Shown here one piece after another: positions 8,747-32,999 of a stretch of 64,000 nucleotides of DNA. The position numbers were made by a program, and so were the translations under genes. The notes under the pieces were generated by a model, which had not been told where the DNA came from, ran no database searches, and saw nothing but the letters and a program-made list of their open reading frames with translations. Source of the DNA: a virus. The stretch's first letter is position 1; each line of letters begins with the position of its first letter. The DNA lies in IMG/VR virus record IMGVR_UViG_3300030118_001869, positions 50,107 through 114,106 of that record. The stretch is one strand, 5' to 3'.

Positions 8747-8905
8747 ATCTTCTTTATCATAGCTCATCACTGATGGTAAACCAGAGTAATGGCATATATC
8801 AGGATATTTCTCTTCTTCCTTCTGCTCTTTACGTATATCCCATACTAAACAACATGCATAAGTTATAAATATAAATGCCCCTATAATAAACATTATAACA
8901 TTCAC
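8729..8905 (-). CDS. Small membrane protein (58 aa, CHYSGLPS motif)
   Basis: Manual translation from GTG: MNVIMFIIGAFIFITYACCLVWDIRKEQ...ICHYSGLPSVMSY; overlaps the stop of the upstream gene. Confidence 0.5.
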   Translation of the reverse strand: MNVIMFIIGAFIFITYACCLVWDIRKEQKEEEKYPDICHYSGLPSVMSYDKEDKKRAG

Positions 8906-9258
8906 AACAAATATGCAGCTTCAGTTCCAGCATCTCCCGGCTGGATTTTATAATCTTTAGCTTTCTTTGTTATCTTTCTCTCAGCCTCTATTTCTTTTTG
9001 TAAGTTAGCTAAAGCTCTCCAGGCAACCTTGGCAGAGTGACGTTGTCCATCATCATCCAATTTACCTGCATCTATAAGGTGGCGAGCTAGTGCATCAAGT
9101 TCATCTGTGCTCTTTGCTCTATCCCAATGCAAAGGTTTATCTGGATGGTGCTGTTGATTTCCAGCTAAGGAAACTTTAGCAACCTCCATTATTGCATCAG
9201 GAAAATACTTTAACACTCCTGTGTATACAGGGCGTTCCTTTCTTTGTTTTGCATCCAT
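8902..9258 (-). CDS. dATP/dGTP diphosphohydrolase domain protein (DUF5664-like)
   Basis: FPDAIMEVAKVSLAG...W...DALARHL...DDDGQRHSAKVAWRAL; start refined to MDAKQ. Confidence 0.8.
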   Translation of the reverse strand: MDAKQRKERPVYTGVLKYFPDAIMEVAKVSLAGNQQHHPDKPLHWDRAKSTDELDALARHLIDAGKLDDDGQRHSAKVAWRALANLQKEIEAERKITKKAKDYKIQPGDAGTEAAYLL

Positions 9259-9259
9259 A

Positions 9260-9490
9260 TTATTCCCATAAACTATCATGTGCAAGACTTCTATGATACT
9301 CCCATCTTTTGCGGGCGTCCATAATAGAGTCTTGTTTCTTATATATAATGGTATCATTATTATCTATATACCAATCTAACACCTCTGGATCTTTATCCGG
9401 GTTATATACATTTTGCTTACATCCTAAGAAGTGAAACAAAACCAACATATATAACAATGTCAATAGTATAAAATAAAGTCTTTCTTTCAT
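9260..9490 (-). CDS. Putative small lipoprotein
   Basis: Hydrophobic signal ending FLGC. Confidence 0.55.
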   Translation of the reverse strand: MKERLYFILLTLLYMLVLFHFLGCKQNVYNPDKDPEVLDWYIDNNDTIIYKKQDSIMDARKRWEYHRSLAHDSLWE

Positions 9491-10793: not shown

Positions 10794-12785
10794 TTAAAAT
10801 AATTCTAGTTGACTTGTAGAAACTTTAAGTATATTATTTATCTCTTGTTCTATTGCAGATATATAATATGCCTTATCAATATTATATGCTTCCCATTGTG
10901 GTTCTACTTTCATTTTATTGAATATAGTTTGTAACCACTTACCAGATTCTAATTGTATCTCTCTATGATCATTCTTATTGACTTTAATAATCTTGACACC
11001 AGTTTTGGAAATATAATATCTATTAATCTTTTGTAACTTATTCTCAATAAACTCTCCTCCATCAATAGTTCTAGAAACTTGTTGCCAATCACCTTTAGAC
11101 TTACCACCTATGCAGTAATCTAAAATGTTTTTGTTTTGTTCTAAATAATCTTGAGGAAGCATATCATGAATAAAATAATAAAAGATAGCTTTTGGTATAA
11201 TAAGTTTAGATTTGTTCTTATGTAACATTAAGTTATGGAAGTCAAACCTACCCTTGAGCTTTGTTGGAGCACAATAGAACTTATCTTTATCTACTTTGTA
11301 TAGATAATGAGGATTCTTTTGCTTCAACGTTCTGAACTCTTCTATTGATACTTGTCTAAATTTGTTTAACCCTATGTAATTATTTACATCACCAAGTATT
11401 AACTTCTGATATTCATCATGCTCAAGTTGTAGATTTGTTATATCTTCCCATTCCTTACATACCTCTAGATACTTATCTTTCTGATCCCTAGGTATTCTAA
11501 TCTCTATACCATCTGTATTCTGTAGTAATGATACTGAACCAGGTATAGCTTCCATAATCATTTCATACAGCATCATCAACGTTAGTTGACCGTTTACTGT
11601 AATCTTCATACAGAGCTCTGGATCATAGAAGAAACTATTCACATCATTACTCAAGCCAAATGTTGAGTTTAATATAATCTTATAAACATAGTTCATAGGA
11701 TTACTTTTAGGTATCTTCTTTCTTTCTTTGAAGAACCATTCATACTGATCACAAAACATATCCGCAGGGAAATGTCCTGGTGACCATCTGTTCTTGATAA
11801 CAAGATTTGGATAGAATGAAGTAACATCTGAAGACATTATAATATTATCTTCATCTGATTCATAAACTCCAGGTTGACGTGCACCATGTGCACCACCTAA
11901 ACCAAAGTGTGTAGTTACACCTTTATAACTAACATTGTATTTAAATCCACGTCTTGAGTTAGATGGATCTAGCTCAACATGCTTAAATCTATCTAATAAT
12001 ACATTAAACTCTGGAGACTTAAAATTTATATAAGGCAGTATTATATCTTTGAACTTTATAGTTTCTCTATAAGTTCTCATTCTTTTTAATTCTGCCTTTG
12101 GTATATTTAAAAGGTTAGATAAGTAATAACCAAATAGTTCTTTACTTATCCTTGGTTCAGATGCACTAAACAAGTTGATACCATACTCCTTAGTCAATGC
12201 TTTACGTAAACTAACTAAAGACTTTGACCTATTAAATATTTCTTTTGTTGATTCAACATCATTAATACAATATTCAATTACAGTATCTATTTGTTCTTGT
12301 GTCTCAATTCTTGTCTCATGAGACAATGGCATGTCTAATATATTTTGCCAATCCATACTGTACTGAATCCACTTCAAGCTTGAACGCTTTGCTGGATTAT
12401 CCCAGTGATGCATTTTAAATATATCTATCTGCCCAATAACCATCTTCCAAAGAGGATACTCTGAAAACTTTTTATTGTTTGCATCTGATATTGTCTTTTG
12501 TGCATACCTATAAATAGCCCTGGCTACCTCATCAGCTGTTCCTTCAGTCCAGTCCTGATAGTTATCTATAATATAATGAGTGACTTGTGCATCAAAGGCT
12601 AAGCCGTTGAATGATATGTGCCACTCTCTGTTATTTACATTTTGTTTTAGGAACTCTATGAATTTATCTCTGTCATCTCTAAGCTCATGTATTACAAATA
12701 CTTTCTGCTCTTCTCCTTTGTAGTGTTTGAATACTGCCACAAAGCAATTAGACAAAGTCTCATAGTCCATTATCCAATGAGTCAT
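10794..12785 (-). CDS. polB: DNA polymerase family B
   Basis: Exo DYE, FNGLAFD, YCINDV; polymerase motifs SDVTSFYPN, KIILNSTFG, NTDG. Confidence 0.92.
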   Translation of the reverse strand: MTHWIMDYETLSNCFVAVFKHYKGEEQKVFVIHELRDDRDKFIEFLKQNVNNREWHISFNGLAFDAQVTHYIIDNYQDWTEGTADEVARAIYRYAQKTISDANNKKFSEYPLWKMVIGQIDIFKMHHWDNPAKRSSLKWIQYSMDWQNILDMPLSHETRIETQEQIDTVIEYCINDVESTKEIFNRSKSLVSLRKALTKEYGINLFSASEPRISKELFGYYLSNLLNIPKAELKRMRTYRETIKFKDIILPYINFKSPEFNVLLDRFKHVELDPSNSRRGFKYNVSYKGVTTHFGLGGAHGARQPGVYESDEDNIIMSSDVTSFYPNLVIKNRWSPGHFPADMFCDQYEWFFKERKKIPKSNPMNYVYKIILNSTFGLSNDVNSFFYDPELCMKITVNGQLTLMMLYEMIMEAIPGSVSLLQNTDGIEIRIPRDQKDKYLEVCKEWEDITNLQLEHDEYQKLILGDVNNYIGLNKFRQVSIEEFRTLKQKNPHYLYKVDKDKFYCAPTKLKGRFDFHNLMLHKNKSKLIIPKAIFYYFIHDMLPQDYLEQNKNILDYCIGGKSKGDWQQVSRTIDGGEFIENKLQKINRYYISKTGVKIIKVNKNDHREIQLESGKWLQTIFNKMKVEPQWEAYNIDKAYYISAIEQEINNILKVSTSQLELF

Positions 12786-12804: not shown

Positions 12805-12830
12805 AAAAAAAGGGCCACAATGTAGCCCTT
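12805..12830 (-). terminator. Intrinsic terminator upstream of polB
   Basis: AAGGGCTACA-t-TGTGGCCCTT followed by T-run on - strand. Confidence 0.6.
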
Positions 12831-12859
12831 CATTTAAAATCAAAAAAACAAAAACAAAA

Positions 12860-13273
12860 TTACAGTTCTGTGATGATCTTAGATACTTTAGTATCTTTGA
12901 TTTCTACATCCGTGAACTGTTTATAATCAAACGTATCTGCATTAATTGCAAATATGTTTATGAAATTATCTATATCATTTTTCTCAGCAATATAGTATTC
13001 TGAATAAGTTTGTTGACTTACTCTTTGTTCTTTTACAGTTTTACCGGTTGTCTTATTAGGAACCTTAAGCCTCATTGGTTGACCTTCATCATTTAATCTT
13101 GGTACCATATGAAATGATTGTTTACTATTCACTCCAATACATGCTAAGATACCTGATGATGGATCAAACATGGCTTCAATATACGGAGCATCTTTGCTCA
13201 CAGGAATTAAATTAAAACTCTTAGCTCCTCTAAAAGAAGAGTTAACAAGCATCATGTTTTTACCTATACTCAT
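12860..13273 (-). CDS. Hypothetical protein
   Basis: ORF track; TATCTTTG box at 13288-13295 just upstream. Confidence 0.75.
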   Translation of the reverse strand: MSIGKNMMLVNSSFRGAKSFNLIPVSKDAPYIEAMFDPSSGILACIGVNSKQSFHMVPRLNDEGQPMRLKVPNKTTGKTVKEQRVSQQTYSEYYIAEKNDIDNFINIFAINADTFDYKQFTDVEIKDTKVSKIITEL

Positions 13274-13860
13274 ATTTGATTTTTATCCAAAGATAATGAA
13301 TTTTTGAAATTATGCAAATCTATTTTCATAGGATATGAATAAAATAATGTTTCTTTTATCTCATCAGGCGGACTACAAACTTCATATACATCCTGTATAA
13401 GTTCAAGATCAACATCAAAGTAATTTGCATACAATTTATGTATCTCTTCTTCTGGTGTAAGAAAAGACTTCACATATGATGATATCCTACCTTGTCCTCC
13501 AAAGAACTCCAAGATAGCTATCTTACTGTTTATGCTAAATGCAGAATATCTTCCCTCAATAAATTTATCATAGTCATGCCTATAATCTTTCATGTCAAAG
13601 ATTATAAGTTGTTCATCACCTAGATCATAGTGTTCCATTTGATTTTGTAATAACGGTAAATGGTCTAGCTGAAACTTAATAAATGCCTCATTACACTTAG
13701 TTTTGTATACACAAATAAATTTATAATCAAGATGGTCATAGATTTCATCCCAAAAACAATAAGTTTCTGATGGGACAAAGTCTATTCCCTTCTTTAATCT
13801 TAGTAAAGGATATAAAAATACTTTACTTTTTTGAAAATATTCTGTATATACACCTCTCAT
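13270..13860 (-). CDS. Hypothetical protein
   Basis: ORF track, overlapping neighbours. Confidence 0.75.
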   Translation of the reverse strand: MRGVYTEYFQKSKVFLYPLLRLKKGIDFVPSETYCFWDEIYDHLDYKFICVYKTKCNEAFIKFQLDHLPLLQNQMEHYDLGDEQLIIFDMKDYRHDYDKFIEGRYSAFSINSKIAILEFFGGQGRISSYVKSFLTPEEEIHKLYANYFDVDLELIQDVYEVCSPPDEIKETLFYSYPMKIDLHNFKNSLSLDKNQI

Positions 13861-13862
13861 AC

Positions 13863-14846
13863 TTATAAATTAACCCTTCTTACTAAGAATTCATAGGGTA
13901 AATTAAAGTTTTTGGTGTCAAAATGGTATTTTGCAGCCTCTAAAGCGTTAAATAAGTCATTCATCCAGCTTGACATAGACTCAATTGATACATTAAATAT
14001 GTAAACTTGATCATAACTATCAATAACAATAAATCTAAATCTTATAGTATAATCTTTCTTGTCATCCGGTAGATTTTCAAAGACTAATTTACTATATATA
14101 GAAGATTGTAACCAGTAATTATAGTACTCTACAGTATCTTTGAAGTCAGTAATACTCTTTGATGTTGTCTTCAAATCATATATAGTTACTTCCTTTGTGT
14201 CATCATTAATTTCATAGAAGTCTATATAGCCATGTAAACCAAAGTTATAGTCCTTTAAATCACACTGTAGATATGCTTCTGCATGTGTAGTTATAGGATC
14301 TAATTCAAAGTCTGATTTCTTTTGAGCCAATGCTGTTTGAACTTCTTCATTACTATTTAGTAGCTCAACTCTTTCTTTGCATTTATTAAGAGTATCAAGA
14401 TCTATAATGTTCTTAATATCATTCATAATAAATGCCCAGTAATCTGCATTGTCTGCAGTCCTGATCTTAGCTAACCTCTGCTCATCTTTCTTTAGTGACT
14501 GATACAGGTTAATCTCTTTAAGAGAATCTAATATAACAAAGTCTTCAACTTTCTCAAGCGTAACAGCATCTGTGTAGTTAGTCATATTATATAATACTTT
14601 CTTTACACTATCTGATGGTGTCTTACCTGGGACAATCTTAAACTTTTCATTAAGCTTGTCTGCTTCAAATAGAAGGCAGTGTATAACACTACCCTCTATA
14701 AGATGCTTGTCTAACCTAATCTCTTTTTCTTTCAGTATATAATCCTTATAAAATAAAGAAGGAGAGAATAACAATCTATTCAATGAAGAATAGCTGAAGT
14801 TAAAGTCCTTGCTAAAGAACTCCTCTTCTTTTTGTTTATCTACCAT
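13863..14846 (-). CDS. PD-(D/E)XK exonuclease (RecB/RecE-like)
   Basis: SYSSL, GSVIHCLL, HGYIDF...YDLKTT, YWLQSSIY. Confidence 0.8.
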   Translation of the reverse strand: MVDKQKEEEFFSKDFNFSYSSLNRLLFSPSLFYKDYILKEKEIRLDKHLIEGSVIHCLLFEADKLNEKFKIVPGKTPSDSVKKVLYNMTNYTDAVTLEKVEDFVILDSLKEINLYQSLKKDEQRLAKIRTADNADYWAFIMNDIKNIIDLDTLNKCKERVELLNSNEEVQTALAQKKSDFELDPITTHAEAYLQCDLKDYNFGLHGYIDFYEINDDTKEVTIYDLKTTSKSITDFKDTVEYYNYWLQSSIYSKLVFENLPDDKKDYTIRFRFIVIDSYDQVYIFNVSIESMSSWMNDLFNALEAAKYHFDTKNFNLPYEFLVRRVNL

Positions 14847-14847
14847 T

Positions 14848-14976
14848 TTATTTAAATAAGAATAAAAGTAATATTATAGCAAAGCATACAAGTAAACTAT
14901 AGCCTGCAACCTTTTCAGTTTGCTCTACTCTATACTTACTTCTACCTTGTCTATATTTAAAATCATCTTCTGTCAT
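14848..14976 (-). CDS. 42-aa tail-anchored membrane microprotein
   Basis: Manual translation MTEDDFKYRQGRSKYRVEQTEKVAGYSLLVCFAIILLLFLFK; fills the operon gap. Confidence 0.55.
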   Translation of the reverse strand: MTEDDFKYRQGRSKYRVEQTEKVAGYSLLVCFAIILLLFLFK

Positions 14977-15130
14977 AGTTACTTAATTTTTGTTGAAGTT
15001 TTTGAATTTGTAATTTTCTCTTGGAACTAAATGGTAAAGATTTTAATTTAAGTATTTCATCAATTATTTTATCTTGATCTTTACGTAAATATTCTTTACC
15101 ATTCTCTCCAAAATGCCCCAGATCTCCCAT
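14963..15130 (-). CDS. 55-aa hypothetical protein
   Basis: Manual translation MGDLGHFGENGKEYLRKDQDKIIDEILKLKSLP...; abuts both neighbours. Confidence 0.55.
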   Translation of the reverse strand: MGDLGHFGENGKEYLRKDQDKIIDEILKLKSLPFSSKRKLQIQKLQQKLSNYDRR

Positions 15131-15132
15131 AG

Positions 15133-16332
15133 TTAAAATGGTAAATCATCAAAGCCGTCAGGCTGAGTTAGTTCTTCTATAATCTCTTTTCCTGATTGCT
15201 TTTTAATAATACAGTTTTTATACTCCGGTGCAAGTTTAATATCCTCTATACTAACATTAAATACAGGATTCTTGTCCTTACCAAAACCATATCTAACTAC
15301 TACTTCTTTATGTACAGTTTCTCTAATAGTTTTCCAAGCCCATTCTGTTAATGATTGCTCTTTAACTAATTCAGCCATAAGCTTTTCATAAACTTGTATC
15401 TGATAATAGTTTGTATTATGTGGAGTAATATCTTGTAAACGCTCTCTCAAAGCTTTTACATTTACTGTATTCCAGTTATTTGCATACCGTATATCATCAT
15501 AGTTCATTGTCCACATAAATGCTACTTTATCTAGGCATTCCTCTACATTACAATTAGCAAGCATTTCTACAGCTAATGATACTGCATCATTATCTCCTGA
15601 TTTTAACATCTGTGTTGTACTTACAACTTCATCCTCTGTAATTATATGTGAATCTTCATTACATATCTTGTTAATACACTTATCTAATACAAGACGGTTC
15701 TTTGTAAGTTCTCTGAATTGATTTACGTTTTCATTCTCAAGTATTACAGAATAATTACCAGGATAATTATTATCCTCAATAAACTTTCTAGATGCTTTAT
15801 TCCAATCATCATAGAATATATTTATTTCATCAGATGAATTATAACTATATCCAGTTTTAATTGCAACATGACAAGTGTCACCTAGCTTATTATAAAGAGA
15901 TTCAATGTTATCAATAAAAGAATCACTATATATAAACTTATCACTATGCTTTTTTAGTGTTTCTATAAATAGATTTAAATAATCTTTTGTATAGTAATTA
16001 TCCCAAGTTTCCGTTAGAAGACTTGCAACTAGTTTATTAGATACAATACTGTAATTAGCTTTCTTCTGATCTCTAACAACTCTTACATTATATTTATCTT
16101 TTAATGTATCTAGTTTTACCCTAGGTAATGATAACTTAGGATATCTATATAATGTAGCACCATCTATTTCAATCATATCTGGTTCAGTTGCAATATCTAA
16201 TTTTACTAGGTTTGCTACTGGTTCATTCCAACCAGTTTTTGCACCTACAAAATATCCAACATTGTCAACCTTACCTTCAAGCTTTTCTTTAGATGAGTCA
16301 CTACTTATGGTTAATCTATATGCTCTATTCAT
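15133..16332 (-). CDS. Hypothetical protein, BRCT-like segment, probable paralog of 16325-17347
   Basis: YRYPKLSLPRVKL..LKDKYNVRVVRDQKKANYSIV; ends DDLPF. Confidence 0.7.
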   Translation of the reverse strand: MNRAYRLTISSDSSKEKLEGKVDNVGYFVGAKTGWNEPVANLVKLDIATEPDMIEIDGATLYRYPKLSLPRVKLDTLKDKYNVRVVRDQKKANYSIVSNKLVASLLTETWDNYYTKDYLNLFIETLKKHSDKFIYSDSFIDNIESLYNKLGDTCHVAIKTGYSYNSSDEINIFYDDWNKASRKFIEDNNYPGNYSVILENENVNQFRELTKNRLVLDKCINKICNEDSHIITEDEVVSTTQMLKSGDNDAVSLAVEMLANCNVEECLDKVAFMWTMNYDDIRYANNWNTVNVKALRERLQDITPHNTNYYQIQVYEKLMAELVKEQSLTEWAWKTIRETVHKEVVVRYGFGKDKNPVFNVSIEDIKLAPEYKNCIIKKQSGKEIIEELTQPDGFDDLPF

Positions 16333-17347
16333 TTTTTTCTAATTTTAAATATTCACGATACTCAGGTTTTACTGCAACCTTAAAGACATACAAATCTCTA
16401 TTAGAAATTCTTATCTCTTTTCTTACTATAGGCTCCAAGTATCTGAATGCTCTTGAAGTTAATAAATTATTTTCTTTTAGCCAAACAATCATCATCTCTG
16501 CAGTATAGTCTGTATAATCTTCAATACCTGAGTTATGATACCAATACTTTAGATCTTTATCTCTTCTAGCATAGTATATTTCATTACCACATTCTTGAGA
16601 AAGTTTCCATAATAGATGACGATTAATATCTGGATCTATTGTAGGAAGCATCTTGAATGCTAATGCTCTGTCATCTCCTCCTGCATTTATTTGTGATATT
16701 AGCATGTTAAGCATATCATGTGTTAGGGCTTGTCTTGTTGAAGATTCACCCATCACAGTTTCTACATCTATAACTGGAAAGTTCTGAGTACCTATCATAT
16801 AAGATAATACTAGTGCAGCACCTGTAAAGTAATCCATTTCATATAAGCTATCACTATCCTCATCATCCCATGACCATGTTCCACCATACTCTGCTTCATC
16901 TTTCTCTTGTTGATATAACAAATACACATCATTTCCTTTGATATGGTATGCATGATAGTTCCAAAGACTTGCTAGCAACATTTTAGTATTTATGTTAGCA
17001 CTGCTTTGATATTCTCCACTAATAGAATGATGAGTTATCACTGCATCAGCTTCATTTATATCAGTGGTAAGTTTTATACCATGCTCTTTCAAGTTCTCCT
17101 TCAATCTATCTTGGCTTACACCACAGTTTGGAAGAAGAAATACTTTTTTATATCCCTGACCAATCAACGTTTTCTGTGTTGGTTTAGTTAATATCTGTTG
17201 TATCTCTTCTCTTTTTGTAGGATCCTGTGCTAAATATACAGGTAGTAGAGTACCGTAGGCAGACACATAGTGTACTTTACTTGTGTCTGCCAAATTGTGG
17301 TAATCTAATACAGTTTTATCTACATGTGTAAAAATGTATTTACTCAT
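16325..17347 (-). CDS. Hypothetical protein, BRCT-like segment
   Basis: FLLPNCGVSQDRLKENLKEHGIKLTTDINEADAVIT. Confidence 0.7.
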   Translation of the reverse strand: MSKYIFTHVDKTVLDYHNLADTSKVHYVSAYGTLLPVYLAQDPTKREEIQQILTKPTQKTLIGQGYKKVFLLPNCGVSQDRLKENLKEHGIKLTTDINEADAVITHHSISGEYQSSANINTKMLLASLWNYHAYHIKGNDVYLLYQQEKDEAEYGGTWSWDDEDSDSLYEMDYFTGAALVLSYMIGTQNFPVIDVETVMGESSTRQALTHDMLNMLISQINAGGDDRALAFKMLPTIDPDINRHLLWKLSQECGNEIYYARRDKDLKYWYHNSGIEDYTDYTAEMMIVWLKENNLLTSRAFRYLEPIVRKEIRISNRDLYVFKVAVKPEYREYLKLEKNE

Positions 17348-17349
17348 AA

Positions 17350-18630
17350 TTATTTCATTGTCATTTTAATAATTTCTGGTTTCATCATTAGCTTACTAAA
17401 CTTCTGCTTGTTACCATTATAGATAGTCCTTACAATAAGATATTTTAAATCATTTGTAAAGTAATCTTTTGTACATAATGCTTCAAGCCTATCAGTAATC
17501 TTTTGACTCACTGTATTATCTTTAGAATATACAACCGCATAGTTTGCAAGTCTTGTAGCTAATGTAGATGCAATGTCAGCACGATATGCATCTCCATCAC
17601 CAATACATCCTTTTAACTCACCAAGTATGTAATCTTGGTTATCATGAGTTAACAGATCCATTGGTGTTACAAGCTTATCTAACTTATTATTAATAAATGT
17701 AGTGAACATTGATGCAAATGCATCTCCTACACTACCTTCACCAATTAACTGTATCAAGGATAAGTTCTTTTCAAAAGACTCAAAGCTTGATATAGAATTA
17801 AAGAAGGTTGTTATAGACCTTGCATTTGTTTCTTGACTTACAAGCTCTGGATGCAATAACAAGAAGTTAATACATCTTGTATCTATATTTGCTTCTTCTG
17901 CCCATCTAGCCCAAACATTCACATCATACTTTAGATTTGCAGTAATATATCTAGTCTTCTGTGCTGCGTCAATACTATTAACCATATAGTCTCCATTGTC
18001 TGGATTTGCTGTCAATATAATATGCCAGTCTTCTGGTAATGTCCATGATATATACTGCTGTCTATCTACTAACTCCATCACTGCTTGTATGAATCTCATA
18101 TCAGCACGGTTCCAGTCATCTAATAATAGTATACCACCTTTTTTCTTATCAGCAATCCACTCAGGTGCACAGTAAGACATTCTATTCTTACCGGTCATCT
18201 TGTATCCTTGCTTAAGATATTCTTGTACTGCAAGTTCATCTACCCAAGATCCTATCTTTTTTGTTACAGTATTAGTAGTATTAAGATTAGCAAGGCTAGC
18301 GCCACCAGCTCTTTGTGCTGCTGTTACCATCTGTAAGTCATCACTACTGCTCTTTACGGGTATTTGCTTCTCTGTATACATTTGGAACTGACGTACAGGA
18401 AAACCTACAAGGTCACCTATCTCTTCTATCTGTGATAGATTTAATTTAACAAAGTCAAGGTCATTCTCTTTTGCAAGTTCAATAACCGTTGAAGTCTTAC
18501 CAATACCAGACTCACCAAGTATTTCTACTGAGACAGGATTCTTACCTTCTTTTCTTATATGTCTATTGTTTGTAATGATATGATTTACAAACCCTTTTAA
18601 TTCATCAATATTTAAATTTACTTCTGCCAT
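17350..18630 (-). CDS. MoxR-type AAA+ ATPase
   Basis: Walker A GESGIGKT, Walker B ILLLDDWNRAD, ILTANP, D.AQKTR; adjacent to a vWA gene. Confidence 0.85.
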   Translation of the reverse strand: MAEVNLNIDELKGFVNHIITNNRHIRKEGKNPVSVEILGESGIGKTSTVIELAKENDLDFVKLNLSQIEEIGDLVGFPVRQFQMYTEKQIPVKSSSDDLQMVTAAQRAGGASLANLNTTNTVTKKIGSWVDELAVQEYLKQGYKMTGKNRMSYCAPEWIADKKKGGILLLDDWNRADMRFIQAVMELVDRQQYISWTLPEDWHIILTANPDNGDYMVNSIDAAQKTRYITANLKYDVNVWARWAEEANIDTRCINFLLLHPELVSQETNARSITTFFNSISSFESFEKNLSLIQLIGEGSVGDAFASMFTTFINNKLDKLVTPMDLLTHDNQDYILGELKGCIGDGDAYRADIASTLATRLANYAVVYSKDNTVSQKITDRLEALCTKDYFTNDLKYLIVRTIYNGNKQKFSKLMMKPEIIKMTMK

Positions 18631-18637
18631 TTTAATT

Positions 18638-19792
18638 TTAATTTAATTGTATTTTTAATCCTGGTAACTCTTCATTGATACTACATTGACTGCTATGAAC
18701 CCATAATGCATTCTTAGGACAGTTTTCTGGAGTATAAGCCTCACCATCTGTTAAATATATTAGTGCCGTATAAGCACGCTTTTTATTATAGTGATCAATA
18801 ACTGGTTGGAAGTCTGTACCTCCTCTACCTTTTATTTCCCAATCTTTTTTTGGATTAAATTCTTCTATAGAATTAATCTGTGTGTCACACTGTACTACTG
18901 TAATCTTGTGACCCGTCTTATGCATATGGTTTATTTCATTCATAAACTCTTTCAACTCATCAGTTGATACTGAGCCAGATGTATCTACACCAACACATAC
19001 ATGATTCTTAGTTTTAATCTTCAAACCAGGGTTATCACTATATCTTTTATTATACTTACGTCTCAGCTTTTTTGTATACACTACACTTGAGTTCCCAACA
19101 AATCTCTTGAGATATGCTCTCCAGTTAAATTTAGGTGGCTCTACATTAAGTAGCCTGCGTATCAGTTCAGCTAACTCACCAGGTATATTACCTCTTCTCT
19201 TTTCTGTTTGCTGTGCTACTTCTTTTATCTGATGCTCTATCTGTTTCTTAATCAGTTTCTTTTCTGACTCAGGTAGATTATCAAATTCATCCCATGTGCT
19301 GTGGCAATAACAAGACGTCCCATCCATTTGATCTAATAAGTTATCTAGAGATGGAGATGATCCGCTATCCTTTGCTTCAGATAACAAATCATAATAAGCT
19401 TTTGTACCTGCCTTAGTTGGTAATTTAAGTTCAGGAAAACTTTCCAATACTAAACCGCCTTCTGGTAGGCATCTGCTACTTATATATTGATTAATCTCTA
19501 AATCTGCAGCTATATTAAATAACTGTTTATCAGCATAAAGATCTCTAACAAGTAGATGTCCAAATGATATATGCAATATCTCATGTTTGAGTAGTCCTTT
19601 TCTTGTGTCATCAGTTAATGATCCAAAATATTCAGGATTGATAGTGAGCTGAACTCCAATACCGTTTTGCATAACACCAGCTGTTGGTATGTCTTTTCTA
19701 TAGGTTTTATTTAAACCAACAATAAAGAGCCCGTAAAAGGGCTCCTCAAGTATTAATGTTTTAGTTGCTTTTGATAATTGGTCTTTTACCAT
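18638..19792 (-). CDS. Metallopeptidase-vWA protein (DUF2201-type)
   Basis: HEILH zincin motif plus NIAADLEIN; MIDAS DTSGS, GRGGTDF, YLTDG. Confidence 0.88.
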   Translation of the reverse strand: MVKDQLSKATKTLILEEPFYGLFIVGLNKTYRKDIPTAGVMQNGIGVQLTINPEYFGSLTDDTRKGLLKHEILHISFGHLLVRDLYADKQLFNIAADLEINQYISSRCLPEGGLVLESFPELKLPTKAGTKAYYDLLSEAKDSGSSPSLDNLLDQMDGTSCYCHSTWDEFDNLPESEKKLIKKQIEHQIKEVAQQTEKRRGNIPGELAELIRRLLNVEPPKFNWRAYLKRFVGNSSVVYTKKLRRKYNKRYSDNPGLKIKTKNHVCVGVDTSGSVSTDELKEFMNEINHMHKTGHKITVVQCDTQINSIEEFNPKKDWEIKGRGGTDFQPVIDHYNKKRAYTALIYLTDGEAYTPENCPKNALWVHSSQCSINEELPGLKIQLN

Positions 19793-20139
19793 TTTAATTG
19801 TACTTTAATATTATCTATGAAATCAAACGTGTTAATATCTGTTATACTATTATTTATATTAGTACTCAAGAGGTAAGTAAACACTTCCTGTACCTCTAAC
19901 TTTCTCTTCTTACATTCATGGTATAATGCTTTGTAAGTAAACTTATCTGGGTTAGGCCAGTCAACAGTTGGGAACTCTTTAATAAAGTCCTTGCGTCTTG
20001 ATCCGGTTAACTCTTTAGCAAACAATAGCTTATATATAGAATCAACTTCTAGGTTATGTATATTAGATACTGCTATCTCAAAGTCTGCAGTATCACCTTT
20101 TAATTGTTTAAGTGTATTTATAAAATTATCTAAGTTCAT
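19786..20139 (-). CDS. Hypothetical protein
   Basis: ORF track, coupled to neighbours. Confidence 0.7.
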   Translation of the reverse strand: MNLDNFINTLKQLKGDTADFEIAVSNIHNLEVDSIYKLLFAKELTGSRRKDFIKEFPTVDWPNPDKFTYKALYHECKKRKLEVQEVFTYLLSTNINNSITDINTFDFIDNIKVQLKW

Positions 20140-20486
20140 TAATCATTTATTTTTAAAGCTTTCATCATCCAAGAGGGTCTTTGGTTTGCTATAATACAAG
20201 TCATCCATTCTTTTGCAGATGGTATGTAATTGTTACAATCCTCTTTTACATGTTGTTCTCCAACATATCTTGTATATACTGTTTTACCATCTGAATTTGT
20301 AAAACTTTTGCCAAATATTTTTTCAGCTTCAAATATCCCTTCAGAGTGATGACGGAACATTCTATGATTAGAATGACCTAACCATTTTTTAGTTTCATCA
20401 AACCAATCATGTATAGCTTGATAGTCACTAATCTTTCCGCCCCACTTCCTACAAGAACTCTTGCTGTGTAGTAATGGGTGTGCCAT
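20139..20486 (-). CDS. DUF6915-like His-rich protein
   Basis: MAHPLLHSKSS.RKWGG..DY.AIHDWFD..HRMFRHHSEGIF..R.VGEQHVKED. Confidence 0.75.
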   Translation of the reverse strand: MAHPLLHSKSSCRKWGGKISDYQAIHDWFDETKKWLGHSNHRMFRHHSEGIFEAEKIFGKSFTNSDGKTVYTRYVGEQHVKEDCNNYIPSAKEWMTCIIANQRPSWMMKALKIND

Positions 20487-20515
20487 ATTATAATTTTGAA
20501 TTAGCCAAGCATTAG

Positions 20516-20536
20516 CTTGGGAGAAATATAATTAGG
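20516..20536 (-). promoter_or_regulatory. Putative phage early promoter (CCTA-N9-CTCCC)
   Basis: Near-identical 21-mers at 24436, 32812 and 34734, all upstream of - strand genes. Confidence 0.65.
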
Positions 20537-20551
20537 ATTTAAAAGAGGGTT

Positions 20552-21388: not shown

Positions 21389-22366
21389 TTATTGTTTTAA
21401 TGTATGTATCAAAAGTTTTCTAAGGGAAGCATTTATTGTTTGAGCAGTGTATTGCTTTACAGCATCTGAAATATCTTTACATTTATTCAGTGTGCAGCCA
21501 TCTAGGTTATACATCTCTTTATATTTCTGTATAGCTTTCTTGCCTGCATCATCATTATCAAACAATGTTATTACTTTCTTATACTTTTTCTTTAAATTTT
21601 CAACAATATAAGGTTTTATTATGGTATTTTCACTGTCTGGTGCAATAACTTCAAGTTTGTAGCCGAAGCTCTTGAGGCACATTGCATCCTTGAGTGAAGA
21701 ACAAATGACTAAATAAGGCTGAGAGAAGTCTAGTTGATCATACCCTTGTAGATATGATTTAACTTTGTGAAACTTATGCTTCTTAGATAGTGGTTGATAT
21801 ATCTTATAGACATTACCTTCTTTATCAAAGTAACCGTACATATATCTTCCTTCTATTTTAAGAGACTTAACTTCACCATCCTCTTCCTTAACCATATTAT
21901 AGTATTCTATAGGTCTAACATTATACTTACCTAGTAGACTACTACCAATATTATATGCTAACCAGTATTGTGCATCATGATCTGACCATGTTCTTTCTTT
22001 AACAAAGTCTATTTCCCATTTTGCAGCTACTTTAAACTTAGTATTATTAAAGTCATCTGTTTTAGCATACTTATTATAATCCTCAACTATCTTACTTACA
22101 GCCTGAGAATATTCTAAATCAAACAAATCTTTGACAAGATCTATTTTACTACCGTACTTACCAGTGGAAAAGTCTTTATACTTGTATTGCATTATGGACT
22201 TATCTACAAAGATACACATAGATGCAGTTCTCTCAGAAGGATTAAAGATAGATTTAATCTTTATGTCCTGACCCGTGAGTTTCTCTGGTAATTCTAAGTA
22301 ATGTTGGAATACCCAGTAACTGGGTACATTTGATTCACTAGATACTAAATTCTTTGTATTAAACAT
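21389..22366 (-). CDS. DNA primase (Toprim), crAss-type
   Basis: KIYQP, LQGYDQL, ICSSLKD, APDSE, FDNDDAG, KDISD; start refined to MFNTK. Confidence 0.85.
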   Translation of the reverse strand: MFNTKNLVSSESNVPSYWVFQHYLELPEKLTGQDIKIKSIFNPSERTASMCIFVDKSIMQYKYKDFSTGKYGSKIDLVKDLFDLEYSQAVSKIVEDYNKYAKTDDFNNTKFKVAAKWEIDFVKERTWSDHDAQYWLAYNIGSSLLGKYNVRPIEYYNMVKEEDGEVKSLKIEGRYMYGYFDKEGNVYKIYQPLSKKHKFHKVKSYLQGYDQLDFSQPYLVICSSLKDAMCLKSFGYKLEVIAPDSENTIIKPYIVENLKKKYKKVITLFDNDDAGKKAIQKYKEMYNLDGCTLNKCKDISDAVKQYTAQTINASLRKLLIHTLKQ

Positions 22367-22382
22367 CTTTGATTTTTTATTA

Positions 22383-22486
22383 TAATAAATACCAGGCTGG
22401 GCCTTGGTCACGCAACTGTAGTTTGACTCCAATTAAGCTGCTGCTGCCACGTCTGGACTGACACCAGTAAGCACCTGGATTTATTA
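22383..22486. ncRNA. Candidate structured RNA or DNA hairpin (about 104 nt)
   Basis: GC-rich intergenic rod closed by TAATAAAT.CCAGG/CCTGG.ATTTATTA with an inner stem. Confidence 0.45.
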
Positions 22487-31538: not shown

Positions 31539-32010
31539 GTTCTACATGAAGTTGGAAATATGGTATGCTATCAGCAGGAATTACTTCACATGCAGTCCTA
31601 TCAATCCTTTCTTTCTTATATATTAAGGTTTTGTCTTCATTATAAGTCATAAGCTCAATATCTAATCTTGTAGAGAATCTGTTTATATCATTACCATAGC
31701 TGTCTCTCTGTGGTACTCTACCAAAATAGTGGTTATTTACACATAAACCTAAGTCAATCATGACATCTATGTCTATATTGTCTGCAAACCACCCCGTTTT
31801 AGAGTGAAACATTACATAATCACCAGGTATAATAGGAACATACTGTTCTTTAAGTTGTAATAGCATGATCATCATTGCTATAGACTCTTTGTCCATAGTC
31901 TCCATGAGGAACTGTGCTATCATATTTCTATTGACACCTGCATTGAGCCCATCTTCAATGAGCCCAAGTGCTGTGTCATGTGGTATTGGTACATCTATCT
32001 GTCTCGCCAT
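31522..32010 (-). CDS. Hypothetical protein
   Basis: ORF track. Confidence 0.7.
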   Translation of the reverse strand: MARQIDVPIPHDTALGLIEDGLNAGVNRNMIAQFLMETMDKESIAMMIMLLQLKEQYVPIIPGDYVMFHSKTGWFADNIDIDVMIDLGLCVNNHYFGRVPQRDSYGNDINRFSTRLDIELMTYNEDKTLIYKKERIDRTACEVIPADSIPYFQLHVERGEDL

Positions 32011-32780
32011 CTTTTCAAGTCATTTATGTGAAATGTATACTGAGGTGTAACCACGTGTGTCATGAATGATTTTAATTCATACCATACATAGCCTGTCTCA
32101 GGATTCATAAGTATATGGTTATCTTGTGCAGGCATAAAGCTCTGAGCCAGCATAAATAACTTATGACCAGTTTCCTGATCATATAGAACATCTACTACAG
32201 TAACTGCATGGCCTGGAAATCCTCCTACAACAAATACATCACCTGCCATTATATCCCATATAGGAACTGCTTCAAGGTTATACTCTGATATAGACCATGT
32301 ATTAGCATATGTCCATACCAAATCCATCCATTTCCTAAATGTTTCACAATTATCTTCTCTTCCTGATGATCCAAGGTATTCCAAATAGTTATACTCTGTG
32401 CCATCAGCTCCATTGAATACTAATCTATCATAGAATTCTGGACCATTACTGTAATTATAAGATGCCCATAGATACATTGATGCATCTGCGCACTGATGTA
32501 AGTCCAAAGGACCTATGTCATAGTCAAATACTGCAGCAAATACATCATTACGGCCATTATATTTAACCTGTCCGTTATGATATCTTACAATATCTTCCTT
32601 CTTTAAAGGATGATCTATTAACCATTGAGAGAAACCATCATCTGATCTGAAGTATTTCTTTGCCTCTTTTGGTATTTTAAAGTGAGTTTTTATAGACTTA
32701 TCACTAGTCTTTAAGGATACGTATTGTGCATGTGTCACATTTAGTGCAAGCATACACATAATTAATATTAAATTTTTCAT
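31995..32780 (-). CDS. Secreted DUF4846-family protein
   Basis: Signal peptide MKNLIL...HAQ; DLHQCADA, GDVFVVGGFPGHAV.VVD, LAQSFMPAQ. Confidence 0.75.
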   Translation of the reverse strand: MKNLILIMCMLALNVTHAQYVSLKTSDKSIKTHFKIPKEAKKYFRSDDGFSQWLIDHPLKKEDIVRYHNGQVKYNGRNDVFAAVFDYDIGPLDLHQCADASMYLWASYNYSNGPEFYDRLVFNGADGTEYNYLEYLGSSGREDNCETFRKWMDLVWTYANTWSISEYNLEAVPIWDIMAGDVFVVGGFPGHAVTVVDVLYDQETGHKLFMLAQSFMPAQDNHILMNPETGYVWYELKSFMTHVVTPQYTFHINDLKRWRDR

Positions 32781-32811
32781 GTTTACTGTTATTAAAAGTT
32801 GCTGAACTCCG

Positions 32812-32832
32812 CTTGGGAGAAAAATAAATAGG
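32812..32832 (-). promoter_or_regulatory. Putative phage early promoter, copy 3
   Basis: + strand CTTGGGAGAAAAATAAATAGG, 31 nt from the DUF4846 ATG. Confidence 0.65.
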
Positions 32833-32999
32833 TAAAATAAAGGTGAATCAGGAAGCCGGTTAACTATTAATAAACTAAACTTATGAAAACTACTCATCAT
32901 AATACGATAGACTTCCTTCATCACCTCTGGTTATCACTTACCTAACCAATGCTTAGCCTTAATACTAATGTTATTATAGTATATAATACTATGTTATTA

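Follow-up and report, generated by a model that had tools for sequence, protein, structure and literature searches.

Midasin (Rea1/Mdn1) is an AAA+ ring whose metal-ion-dependent adhesion site (MIDAS) grips an acidic residue on a dedicated adaptor or client, and which pulls assembly factors off pre-ribosomes. In the archaeal virus ATV, a MoxR-vWA pair was shown to take part in tail development. Iyer et al. 2021 reported a pair composed of a MoxR ATPase and a metallopeptidase-vWA protein in jumbo phages and, by analogy with ATV, proposed for it a role in virion assembly in group 2.2 jumbo phages (PMC7824862). In bacteria, Kaur et al. 2020 described MoxR-vWA ternary conflict systems whose third component is largely helical and rapidly diverging (PMC7159879). 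We found no experimental work on the MoxR and zincin-vWA pair in the literature. In this study, we analyzed a stretch of 64,000 nucleotides (the window), which corresponds to bases 50107-114106 of the 114,106-bp IMG/VR virus record IMGVR_UViG_3300030118_001869 (judged 99% complete) and encodes such a pair within a string of minus-strand genes (Table 1). Our main finding was that this string has a conserved core consisting of five genes, which encode a helical protein of 117 amino acids (aa), a zincin-vWA protein, a MoxR/midasin-type ATPase, and two proteins of 340 and 399 aa with BRCT-like and ARM-like regions. The 117-aa, 340-aa and 399-aa products have one helical, ARM-like module in common and are referred to here as ARM-module proteins. 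A first-pass annotation of the window had regarded the string as its best candidate for an undescribed system. This was only partly correct, because the motor-protease pair itself is already known as gp24/gp25 of phage N4, whereas the BRCT-like and ARM-like family of putative adaptors seems to be undescribed, as we found no published description of it. Literature searches on COG3864, on DUF6915, on MoxR in crAss-like phages, and on BRCT combined with phage and vWA also returned nothing.

Comparison with known MoxR-vWA systems

With regard to the N4 gp24/gp25-type pair, known from Schitoviridae as well as from jumbo phages, the vWA proteins were 22-31% identical over 80-100% of their length and had the same invariant HExxHxxxxH and MIDAS residues, the ATPases belonged to the same family, and the two genes were adjacent in every region examined. 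In contrast, in the window the vWA gene precedes the ATPase gene (an order shared with Alteromonas phage AD45-P1), its Walker B motif contains DD instead of the DE found in the N4, PBS1, Moorella phage, K64-1 and AD45-P1 homologues, and its pair is flanked by three ARM-module proteins and embedded in a replication block. A homologue of the vWA protein was present in 491 GenBank phage records, and the ATPase gene adjoined it in all five regions examined. The carriers included N4-like phages (gp25), PBS1/AR9, K64-1/Rak2-like jumbo phages, Alteromonas phage AD45-P1 and a Moorella phage, among others. The pair lay next to nucleotide-metabolism or replication genes in N4, PBS1 and the Moorella phage, and in K64-1 it was located among virion structural genes together with an Hsp70-like gene.

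Midasin gave the best solved-structure match when the ATPase family profile was compared with known structures (E 9e-23 for its AAA domains), followed by McrB (3e-6) and the MoxR structure 2R44 (2.5e-4), and the two systems have in common an AAA+ motor and a MIDAS logic. On the other hand, midasin is one very large chain that contains six AAA modules and lacks a peptidase, whereas the ATPase in the window has a single module, presumably forming a hexamer, and the MIDAS belongs to a separate protein, in which it is fused to a zincin. The bacterial ternary systems of the VMAP/iSTAND type resemble the locus in that MoxR and vWA are accompanied by an adjacent, rapidly diverging and largely helical component. 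However, the accessory proteins in the window appear, from their predicted BRCT/ARM-like folds, not to carry a VMAP-C or inactive STAND (iSTAND) domain, the vWA protein carries an N-terminal zincin and is without C-terminal effector domains, and the module is encoded by a phage within its replication genes. The only row from a PADLOC search was sub-threshold and paired the ATPase with DolB (18.8 bits, E 1.9e-4); a search of NCBIfam returned none.

A conserved five-gene core within a replication block

An ATPase relative was encoded on 394 IMG/VR contigs, and the locus therefore belongs to an abundant clade of uncultured marine phages, with genomes of ~110-120 kb. No close relative was found among GenBank phages (megablast of the region gave no match), and the DNA polymerase was at most ~33% identical to the polymerases of Vibrio, Nitrincola and Cellulophaga phi14:2 phages. 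The last of these, a related crAss-like phage with the same polymerase type, had neither the vWA protein nor the BRCT-ARM family. Two sets of loci were used for comparison. The close set comprised the best 80 of the 394 loci (81-92% ATPase identity), in which 20 window proteins were compared by tblastn, and the distant set comprised 9 loci (ATPase identity 47-65%, 340 family 19-27%), which were gathered with the alignment subsets A5 and A7. Gene identities were based on Pfam gathering cut-offs and PHROG profiles.

All of the genes listed by the first-pass annotation were present on the minus strand where it had placed them, and they abutted each other, separated by 1-7 nt or overlapping by 1-14 nt. 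A fixed order was observed in the 80 close loci: a 176-aa protein, a Sak4-like annealing protein, a 225-aa protein, the primase and a RusA-like protein were followed by the vWA protein, the ATPase, the 340-aa protein, the 399-aa protein, a PD-(D/E)XK nuclease, a 196-aa protein, a 137-aa protein, the DNA polymerase and a DUF932 protein. The module is flanked by helicase, Sak4, primase and RusA genes on one side and by RecB-like exonuclease and DNA polymerase genes on the other, and is part of a replication/recombination gene block rather than a free-standing operon. The core order was kept in ~90 IMG/VR contigs, down to 47% ATPase identity, and the 9 distant loci retained the order small protein, vWA, ATPase, BRCT-ARM protein, exonuclease, 196-aa protein, 137-aa protein and polymerase. 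Thus, the prediction of a conserved multi-gene unit with dedicated accessory genes around the ATPase and the zincin-vWA protein held in every relative fetched, and a check of which flanking genes occur together with the pair revealed that, within the clade, it is accompanied by the small ARM-module gene and by one or two BRCT-ARM genes. The single BRCT-ARM gene was found in L086 and L087, where it scored with the profiles of both families whose genes are separate in the other loci, which fits an origin of the two by duplication. The accessory proteins have changed fast and the ATPase/vWA core slowly: in the close loci, the ATPase and the vWA protein had median identities of 82% and 71%, compared with 40% and 31% for the 340-aa and 399-aa proteins, respectively.

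Table 1. Coordinates of the core genes, their neighbours and other features of the string (positions in the window)
Feature	Position	Strand	Evidence
18-nt motif CCTAWTTATWTTTCTCCC, candidate phage promoter or leader element upstream of DUF6915 gene	20519..20536	-	
DUF6915 protein, 115 aa, His-rich, optional	20139..20486	-	Pfam E 1.8e-39
Small helical ARM-module protein, 117 aa, core, directly upstream of vWA gene	19786..20139	-	alignment A3
Zincin metallopeptidase DUF2201_N + vWA/MIDAS DUF2201, N4 gp25 homologue	18638..19792	-	Pfam, motifs
AAA+ ATPase, 426 aa, Walker B DD, insert after Walker A	17350..18630	-	phrog_1297 E 4e-35
BRCT-like + ARM-like protein 1, 340 aa	16325..17347	-	AlphaFold2 model, VIA matches
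BRCT-like + ARM-like protein 2, 399 aa, fast-evolving, C-terminus GFDDLPF	15133..16332	-	AlphaFold2 model, VIA matches
Two micro-ORFs (micro open reading frames), 55 aa (14963-15130) and 42 aa (14848-14976), variable filler	14848..15130	-	
PD-(D/E)XK (RecB/RecE-like) exonuclease, conserved downstream neighbour	13863..14846	-	PDDEXK_1
Two conserved genes without assigned family (196 aa, 137 aa), last of string before terminator-like hairpin	12860..13860	-	in 61-63/80 loci and distant loci
Terminator-like GC hairpin followed by T run, between 137-aa gene and DNA polymerase gene	12809..12831	-	

The zincin-vWA protein and the ATPase

Both domains of the vWA protein exceeded the Pfam gathering cut-offs (DUF2201_N, 65.0 bits with a cut-off of 23.2; DUF2201, 67.2 bits with a cut-off of 26.4). 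The vWA domain is C-terminal (residues 266-369 of 384), and the N-terminal zincin is the sole domain fused to it. The zincin motif reads HEILHISFGH, and its residues H70, E71, H74 and H79 were invariant in 10 diverse phages and in all close relatives. When the comparison was extended from N4 gp25 to the window protein, HExxHxxxxH, NxAxD, DxSGS, GGT and TD were all invariant, and the MIDAS sequence DTSGS was present in 51 of 53 relatives. With an invariant zincin and a full set of MIDAS motifs, the peptidase and MIDAS activities of this protein are therefore probably both real. PHROG 1314 calls the family an HNH endonuclease, a label that has spread to many GenBank records; we saw no HNH feature in the family, and Pfam recognizes a metallopeptidase and a vWA-like domain.

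The ATPase scored under the cut-offs of Pfam AAA, AAA_5 and AAA_3 (16.7-18.2 bits). Its Walker A motif (GESGIGKT) was found in all 49 distinct close relatives, as was the DD of its Walker B motif (LLLDDWNRA), in which the canonical catalytic Glu is replaced by Asp. DD was also present in four of the five distant homologues checked, and the pattern was not found in L098. An insert of ~40 residues follows Walker A relative to the L086 and L088 homologues. Alignments thus agree with the first-pass annotation on both the Walker B DD and the insert. In a 9-sequence alignment across phage families, N209 and R227 were invariant, and by position only they are candidates for sensor 1 and the arginine finger, respectively.

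In two relatives, L085 and L086, genes of the block are split by additional ORFs (L085:6833-7648, L086:5955-6788 and L085:14052-14864): a GIY-YIG/NUMOD1 ORF interrupts the ATPase gene, and LAGLIDADG ORFs interrupt the vWA and polymerase genes. The inserted ORFs probably belong to group I introns or inteins that carry homing endonucleases. Such homing elements usually invade conserved, indispensable genes, and we count the invasion of the ATPase, vWA and polymerase genes as a sign that these genes are important.

Two related proteins with BRCT-like and ARM-like regions

AlphaFold2 models of the 340-aa and 399-aa proteins were built from alignments of 47 and 43 relatives, and had mean predicted local distance difference test (pLDDT) scores of 85.8 and 88.3, respectively. 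Structure comparison with VIA matched residues 62-205 of the 340-aa model to BRCT domains (Z up to 7.3) and residues 205-281 to ARM/HEAT repeats (Z up to 6.8). In the 399-aa model, the BRCT matches covered residues 55-228 (Z up to 6.0) and the ARM matches residues 229-307 (Z up to 7.4), and the BRCT regions of both models were interrupted by large inserts. More than 12 BRCT structures were matched, including BAF155, XRCC1, MCPH1, PARP4, ECT2, Rad4/TopBP1, PTIP, Dbf4 and Rev1, with Z 5.1-7.3, root-mean-square deviations of 2.5-3.8 A and 61-80 aligned residues, although a Z below 8 can also mean a common arrangement. Foldseek returned a single weak BRCT row, and its search of the Protein Data Bank (PDB) found nothing at E <= 0.001 for either model. 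PDB sequence-profile searches with the profiles A1 and A2 gave no match, and protein Atlas scores were all below 0.8. Like the BRCT scaffolds XRCC1, TopBP1/Rad4, Dbf4, Rev1, PARP and RFC1/LigA, the two proteins have a predicted beta-alpha-beta-beta-alpha-beta-alpha core and are placed among replication or repair functions; unlike them, they have a very weak sequence signal, large inserts and a fusion to the ARM-like region. Conserved basic residues are present in the consensus. On the basis of the models, "BRCT-like" appears to be a reasonable but unproven label.

The relationship between the two families is better supported than this label. BLASTP detected no similarity between the 340-aa and 399-aa proteins (E 1.7), whereas hhalign aligned their families over 125 columns (P 1e-3). 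An exhaustive profile search with the 340 family collected 283 representative clusters, in whose distant tail proteins of 360-390 aa scored with both family profiles. When a profile of this tail (A4) was searched against the genome, it matched exactly these two genes (E 1.2e-39 and 1.1e-11). A Foldseek search of BFVD with the 399-aa model returned four phage proteins, all uncharacterised, that share its overall fold (E 1e-9 to 2e-6); two of the four were from one phage. The two proteins had been annotated as BRCT-like paralogs: profile and fold evidence supports their homology, and the BRCT assignment rests on the AlphaFold2 models and on Z values of 5-7.3. Searching GenBank phages by tblastn with the 340-aa protein, the 399-aa protein and an intermediate (P0231) gave no match. 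Longer fused versions of the BRCT-ARM proteins were also looked for, and none turned up; this is weak evidence. Among the Pfam, PADLOC and NCBIfam models, none matched the accessory proteins convincingly, and Pfam gave only sub-threshold rows for PTPase and mTOR_dom. The possibility that the ATPase and the two paralogs form a divergent clamp loader was considered and dropped, the RFC rows being weak and non-significant.

Members of the 399 family were conserved in the BRCT core and the ARM module and variable at the N-terminus, in the insert and at the tail. The window member ends in GFDDLPF, which agrees with the docking tail of the bacterial single-stranded DNA-binding protein (SSB; DDDIPF-type), in which acidic residues precede a C-terminal [IL]PF. 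However, the 399-aa protein is not an OB-fold SSB, and the tail was found in only ~5 of 43 family members: DDLPF was conserved in the window, L001, L006 and L008, and L072 has EEDLPF. The other members mostly end in plain acidic residues.

The third ARM-module protein is the small protein encoded directly upstream of the vWA gene, which the first-pass annotation had described as a 117-aa unknown. By tblastn, the genes for DUF6878, DUF6915 and the 117-aa protein seemed to be present in 10-15 loci only. Nevertheless, a gene of 95-145 aa whose product aligns with the 117-aa protein was located directly upstream of vWA in every locus, so that the 117-aa unknown belongs to the core and evolves fast. 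It adjoined vWA even where DUF6915 and DUF6878 had been gained or lost. A helical motif (approximately xxMLxSxDxDxxxLAxEMLxN) was common to the small protein and both BRCT-ARM families; hhalign connected the small family with the 399 family (E 2.3e-5, probability 76) and with the 340 family (E 4e-4), and distant members of the small family matched the A4/A2 profiles.

Selection and correlated divergence

Ratios of nonsynonymous to synonymous substitution rates (dN/dS) were estimated by the Nei-Gojobori method from 18 independent locus pairs; with dS ~1, the values are approximate. They were 0.07 for the ATPase, 0.09 for the polymerase, 0.12 for the vWA protein, 0.23 for the 340-aa protein and 0.44 for the 399-aa protein, the last being the highest of the block.

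We also correlated the pairwise distances of 78 gene pairs across 42 loci with 300 taxon bootstraps, leaving kinship and unequal dynamic range in the data. The vWA and 340-aa proteins gave the highest correlation of all pairs (rho 0.82) and ranked first in 220 of the 300 bootstraps. In 97% of bootstraps, the vWA protein was a better partner of the 340-aa protein than any other, and the ATPase gene separates the two. The second-highest pair was the 399-aa protein and the primase (21389-22432, minus strand), with rho 0.76 and the top rank in 35 of 300 bootstraps; this may reflect a link between the second paralog and priming.

Optional neighbours and other features of the window

The G+C content is ~33%. 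In the window, a run of minus-strand genes extends from ~8.9 to 34.7 kb, and from 41 kb on the plus strand carries the terminase, portal and major head genes.

Several genes that the first-pass annotation had included in the system appeared to be optional or to belong elsewhere. DUF6915 was present in 11 of the 80 close loci and in some distant ones, and the two micro-ORFs were found in 5 (14963-15130) and 21 (14848-14976) of the 80, which does not support a role for any of them as parts of the system. DUF6915 and DUF6878 were lost in the largest subclade and reappeared, well conserved, in distant lineages. DUF6915 was also encoded in 127 GenBank phage records (Streptomyces, Bacillus, Gordonia and others), a different set from the records with the MoxR-vWA pair. 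For a protein of such different phages, DUF6915 is unusually well conserved, with 54% identity to Bacillus anthracis phage proteins and 64-85% identity within the clade, with many conserved His and Cys residues, and no solved homologue of it was found. The 42-aa micro-ORF has a hydrophobic C-terminus of ~20 residues, its product may be a small membrane protein judging from its sequence, and in some relatives it is placed elsewhere in the locus. The PD-(D/E)XK nuclease was present in all complete loci and was recognized by PDDEXK_1 (33 bits with a cut-off of 22, E 7.7e-8) and by phrog_412, exonuclease VIII (2.3e-12). More likely, it serves as the exonuclease for the Sak4/SSB-like recombination genes close by, which is a simpler explanation than membership of the system. 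The best reading is that the DUF6915 cassette with its motif, the micro-ORFs and the nuclease are neighbours and not parts of the machine. For the 196-aa and 137-aa proteins, Pfam had no match, and the 196-aa protein gave one PHROG row (E 0.006).

The 18-nt motif CCTAWTTATWTTTCTCCC occurred in exactly three copies in the 114-kb genome (0.13 expected). Every copy is on the minus strand, ~30 nt ahead of an ATG, and a promoter is plausible from the sequence. Only the closest relatives (L001-L005) kept it at the corresponding positions. The operon had been described as self-promoted, which may apply to the window subclade, where the motif would be the promoter; most relatives, however, are without the motif, and their small gene abuts or overlaps the RusA-like gene. 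The third copy (32815-32832) lies inside an ORF called from GTG (31995-32924, minus strand), with an ATG ~30 nt after the motif; therefore, the real gene probably begins near 32780, with intergenic sequence upstream of it. A perfect 6-bp hairpin (CCAAGC-TAAT-GCTTGG; 20505-20520, minus strand) overlaps the 3' end of the motif and is unique in the window, but it is not beyond chance, as at least one match was found in 41 of 100 shuffles. Sigma-70 promoter-like sites were not enriched (54 observed vs 56.6 expected), and none was found in the 20487-20551 gap.

Two further observations concern the neighbouring replication genes. The DNA polymerase ends in STSQLELF (10794-10819, minus strand), which resembles the bacterial beta-clamp-binding motif, and no clamp or clamp-loader gene was seen among the genes scanned. 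An ORF at 8902-9357 (minus strand) encodes the N-terminal domain of the dATP/dGTP diphosphohydrolase family and is MazZ-like (Pfam E 4.9e-11). A Z-base genome was considered on account of this gene and dropped, since a PurZ-type adenylosuccinate synthetase was absent from the genome.

Discussion

Our preferred reading, which is tentative and held at somewhat less than even confidence, is that the core encodes a remodeller and protease which ARM-module adaptors steer to DNA-bound complexes while replication is under way. If it works like midasin, RavA-ViaA, CbbQ-CbbO and the MoxR-vWA pair of ATV, the ATPase ring would supply mechanical force, the MIDAS of the vWA protein would grip an acidic residue of a partner, and the fused zincin would cut the bound polypeptide. 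The ARM-module proteins would be adaptors or first clients that dock on the vWA protein or the ATPase via their common helical module. The BRCT-like domains, together with the SSB-like DDLPF tail in the window subclade, might then aim the machine at DNA-bound or phosphate-bearing replication or recombination complexes of the phage or the host. A bolder version, in which a midasin-like extraction-and-cleavage machine (a MoxR ring with its separate MIDAS-zincin subunit), steered by a diversifying family of BRCT-like and ARM-like adaptors of which one mimics the host SSB tail, strips and cuts specific DNA-bound proteins of host or phage at the fork and re-tools the host replisome for the phage, appears quite improbable.

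Several results weigh against the proposed remodeller. First, all BRCT-ARM loci come from one broad phage clade in which the whole replication block is collinear, so that the synteny could be inherited rather than selected. Second, none of the neighbours of the pair in N4, AD45-P1, PBS1, the Moorella phage and K64-1 matched the accessory profiles A1-A5 better than E 0.02, which means that the pair does not need the BRCT-ARM or small ARM-module proteins in general. Third, the BRCT call is modest, since Pfam BRCT (E 0.0043) and BRCT_2 (E 0.016) each matched one of 40 members, below significance. Fourth, the DD in Walker B may lead to slow or altered hydrolysis. Fifth, the correlation between the vWA and 340-aa distances only suggests a connection, as it includes kinship and dynamic range. 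Finally, we know of no member of the DUF2201 family with a known substrate.

The alternative that survives best, which we consider unlikely yet deserving of serious attention, is that the adjacency was inherited and is not functional, the accessory proteins being independent replication or recombination factors, for example of a hub-like or loader-like kind that would recruit host factors, and the MoxR-vWA pair doing a separate job. With the block collinear from helicase to polymerase in every relative, any two of its genes would co-occur, and this explanation also accommodates the different neighbours of the pair in N4, PBS1, K64-1, AD45-P1 and the Moorella phage. The divergence of the 399-aa protein, moreover, tracks that of the primase best and not that of the vWA protein, and its DDLPF tail and the QLELF end of the polymerase would fit a replisome hub without MoxR. 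However, inherited order does not readily explain why the vWA and 340-aa proteins are the best-correlated of the 78 pairs though their genes are not adjacent, why the small ARM-module gene holds its place before vWA despite the gain or loss of DUF6915 and DUF6878, or why three proteins that share a helical module are encoded on either side of the pair.

A role in host takeover or anti-defence, which the first-pass annotation had favored, seems rather unlikely. Here, fast-evolving BRCT-ARM adaptors would recognise variable host proteins, whether defence or replication factors, and the MoxR-vWA-zincin machine would strip or cleave them. Such a role would agree with the highest dN/dS of the 399-aa protein and its variable N-terminus, insert and tail, with the presence of a host-SSB-like DDLPF tail in one subclade only, as expected of host-specific mimicry, with the known bacterial MoxR-vWA ternary conflict systems (PMC7159879), and with the position of the module behind an early-type motif in the window subclade. 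On the other hand, even the highest dN/dS is still below 1 at the level of the gene, and PADLOC gave no convincing match beyond the sub-threshold DolB row. The core is embedded in replication genes, is under strong purifying selection, and is universal and among the most conserved parts of the block, unlike typical counter-defence genes, and N4-like and jumbo phages, whose hosts differ widely, have the same pair among their core genes. Thus, the suggested link to anti-defence found no direct support in our data, and this explanation overlaps the adaptor-directed remodeller instead of excluding it.

That the pair is a virion-assembly chaperone and maturation protease is very improbable, since, although Iyer et al. 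proposed this role, ATV offers a precedent and the K64-1 pair lies among structural genes, the window pair is located between primase/RusA and exonuclease/polymerase on the strand opposite terminase, portal and capsid, the pairs of N4, PBS1 and the Moorella phage have nucleotide-metabolism or replication neighbours, and the BRCT-like partners suggest DNA or phospho-protein targets.

This work defines a BRCT-like and ARM-like family of ~280 clusters at 50% identity. The MoxR and zincin-vWA pair, which is present in N4-like and many jumbo phages, is found here with dedicated, apparently co-evolving partners that have recognisable interaction domains, and in a replication context, which leads to testable hypotheses: which proteins dock on the MIDAS, what the zincin targets, and whether DNA ends or phosphoproteins are ligands of the BRCT-like domains. 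If the bolder, midasin-like version described above is correct, it would provide the first function for the N4 gp24/gp25-type pair, which occurs in ~490 GenBank phage records.

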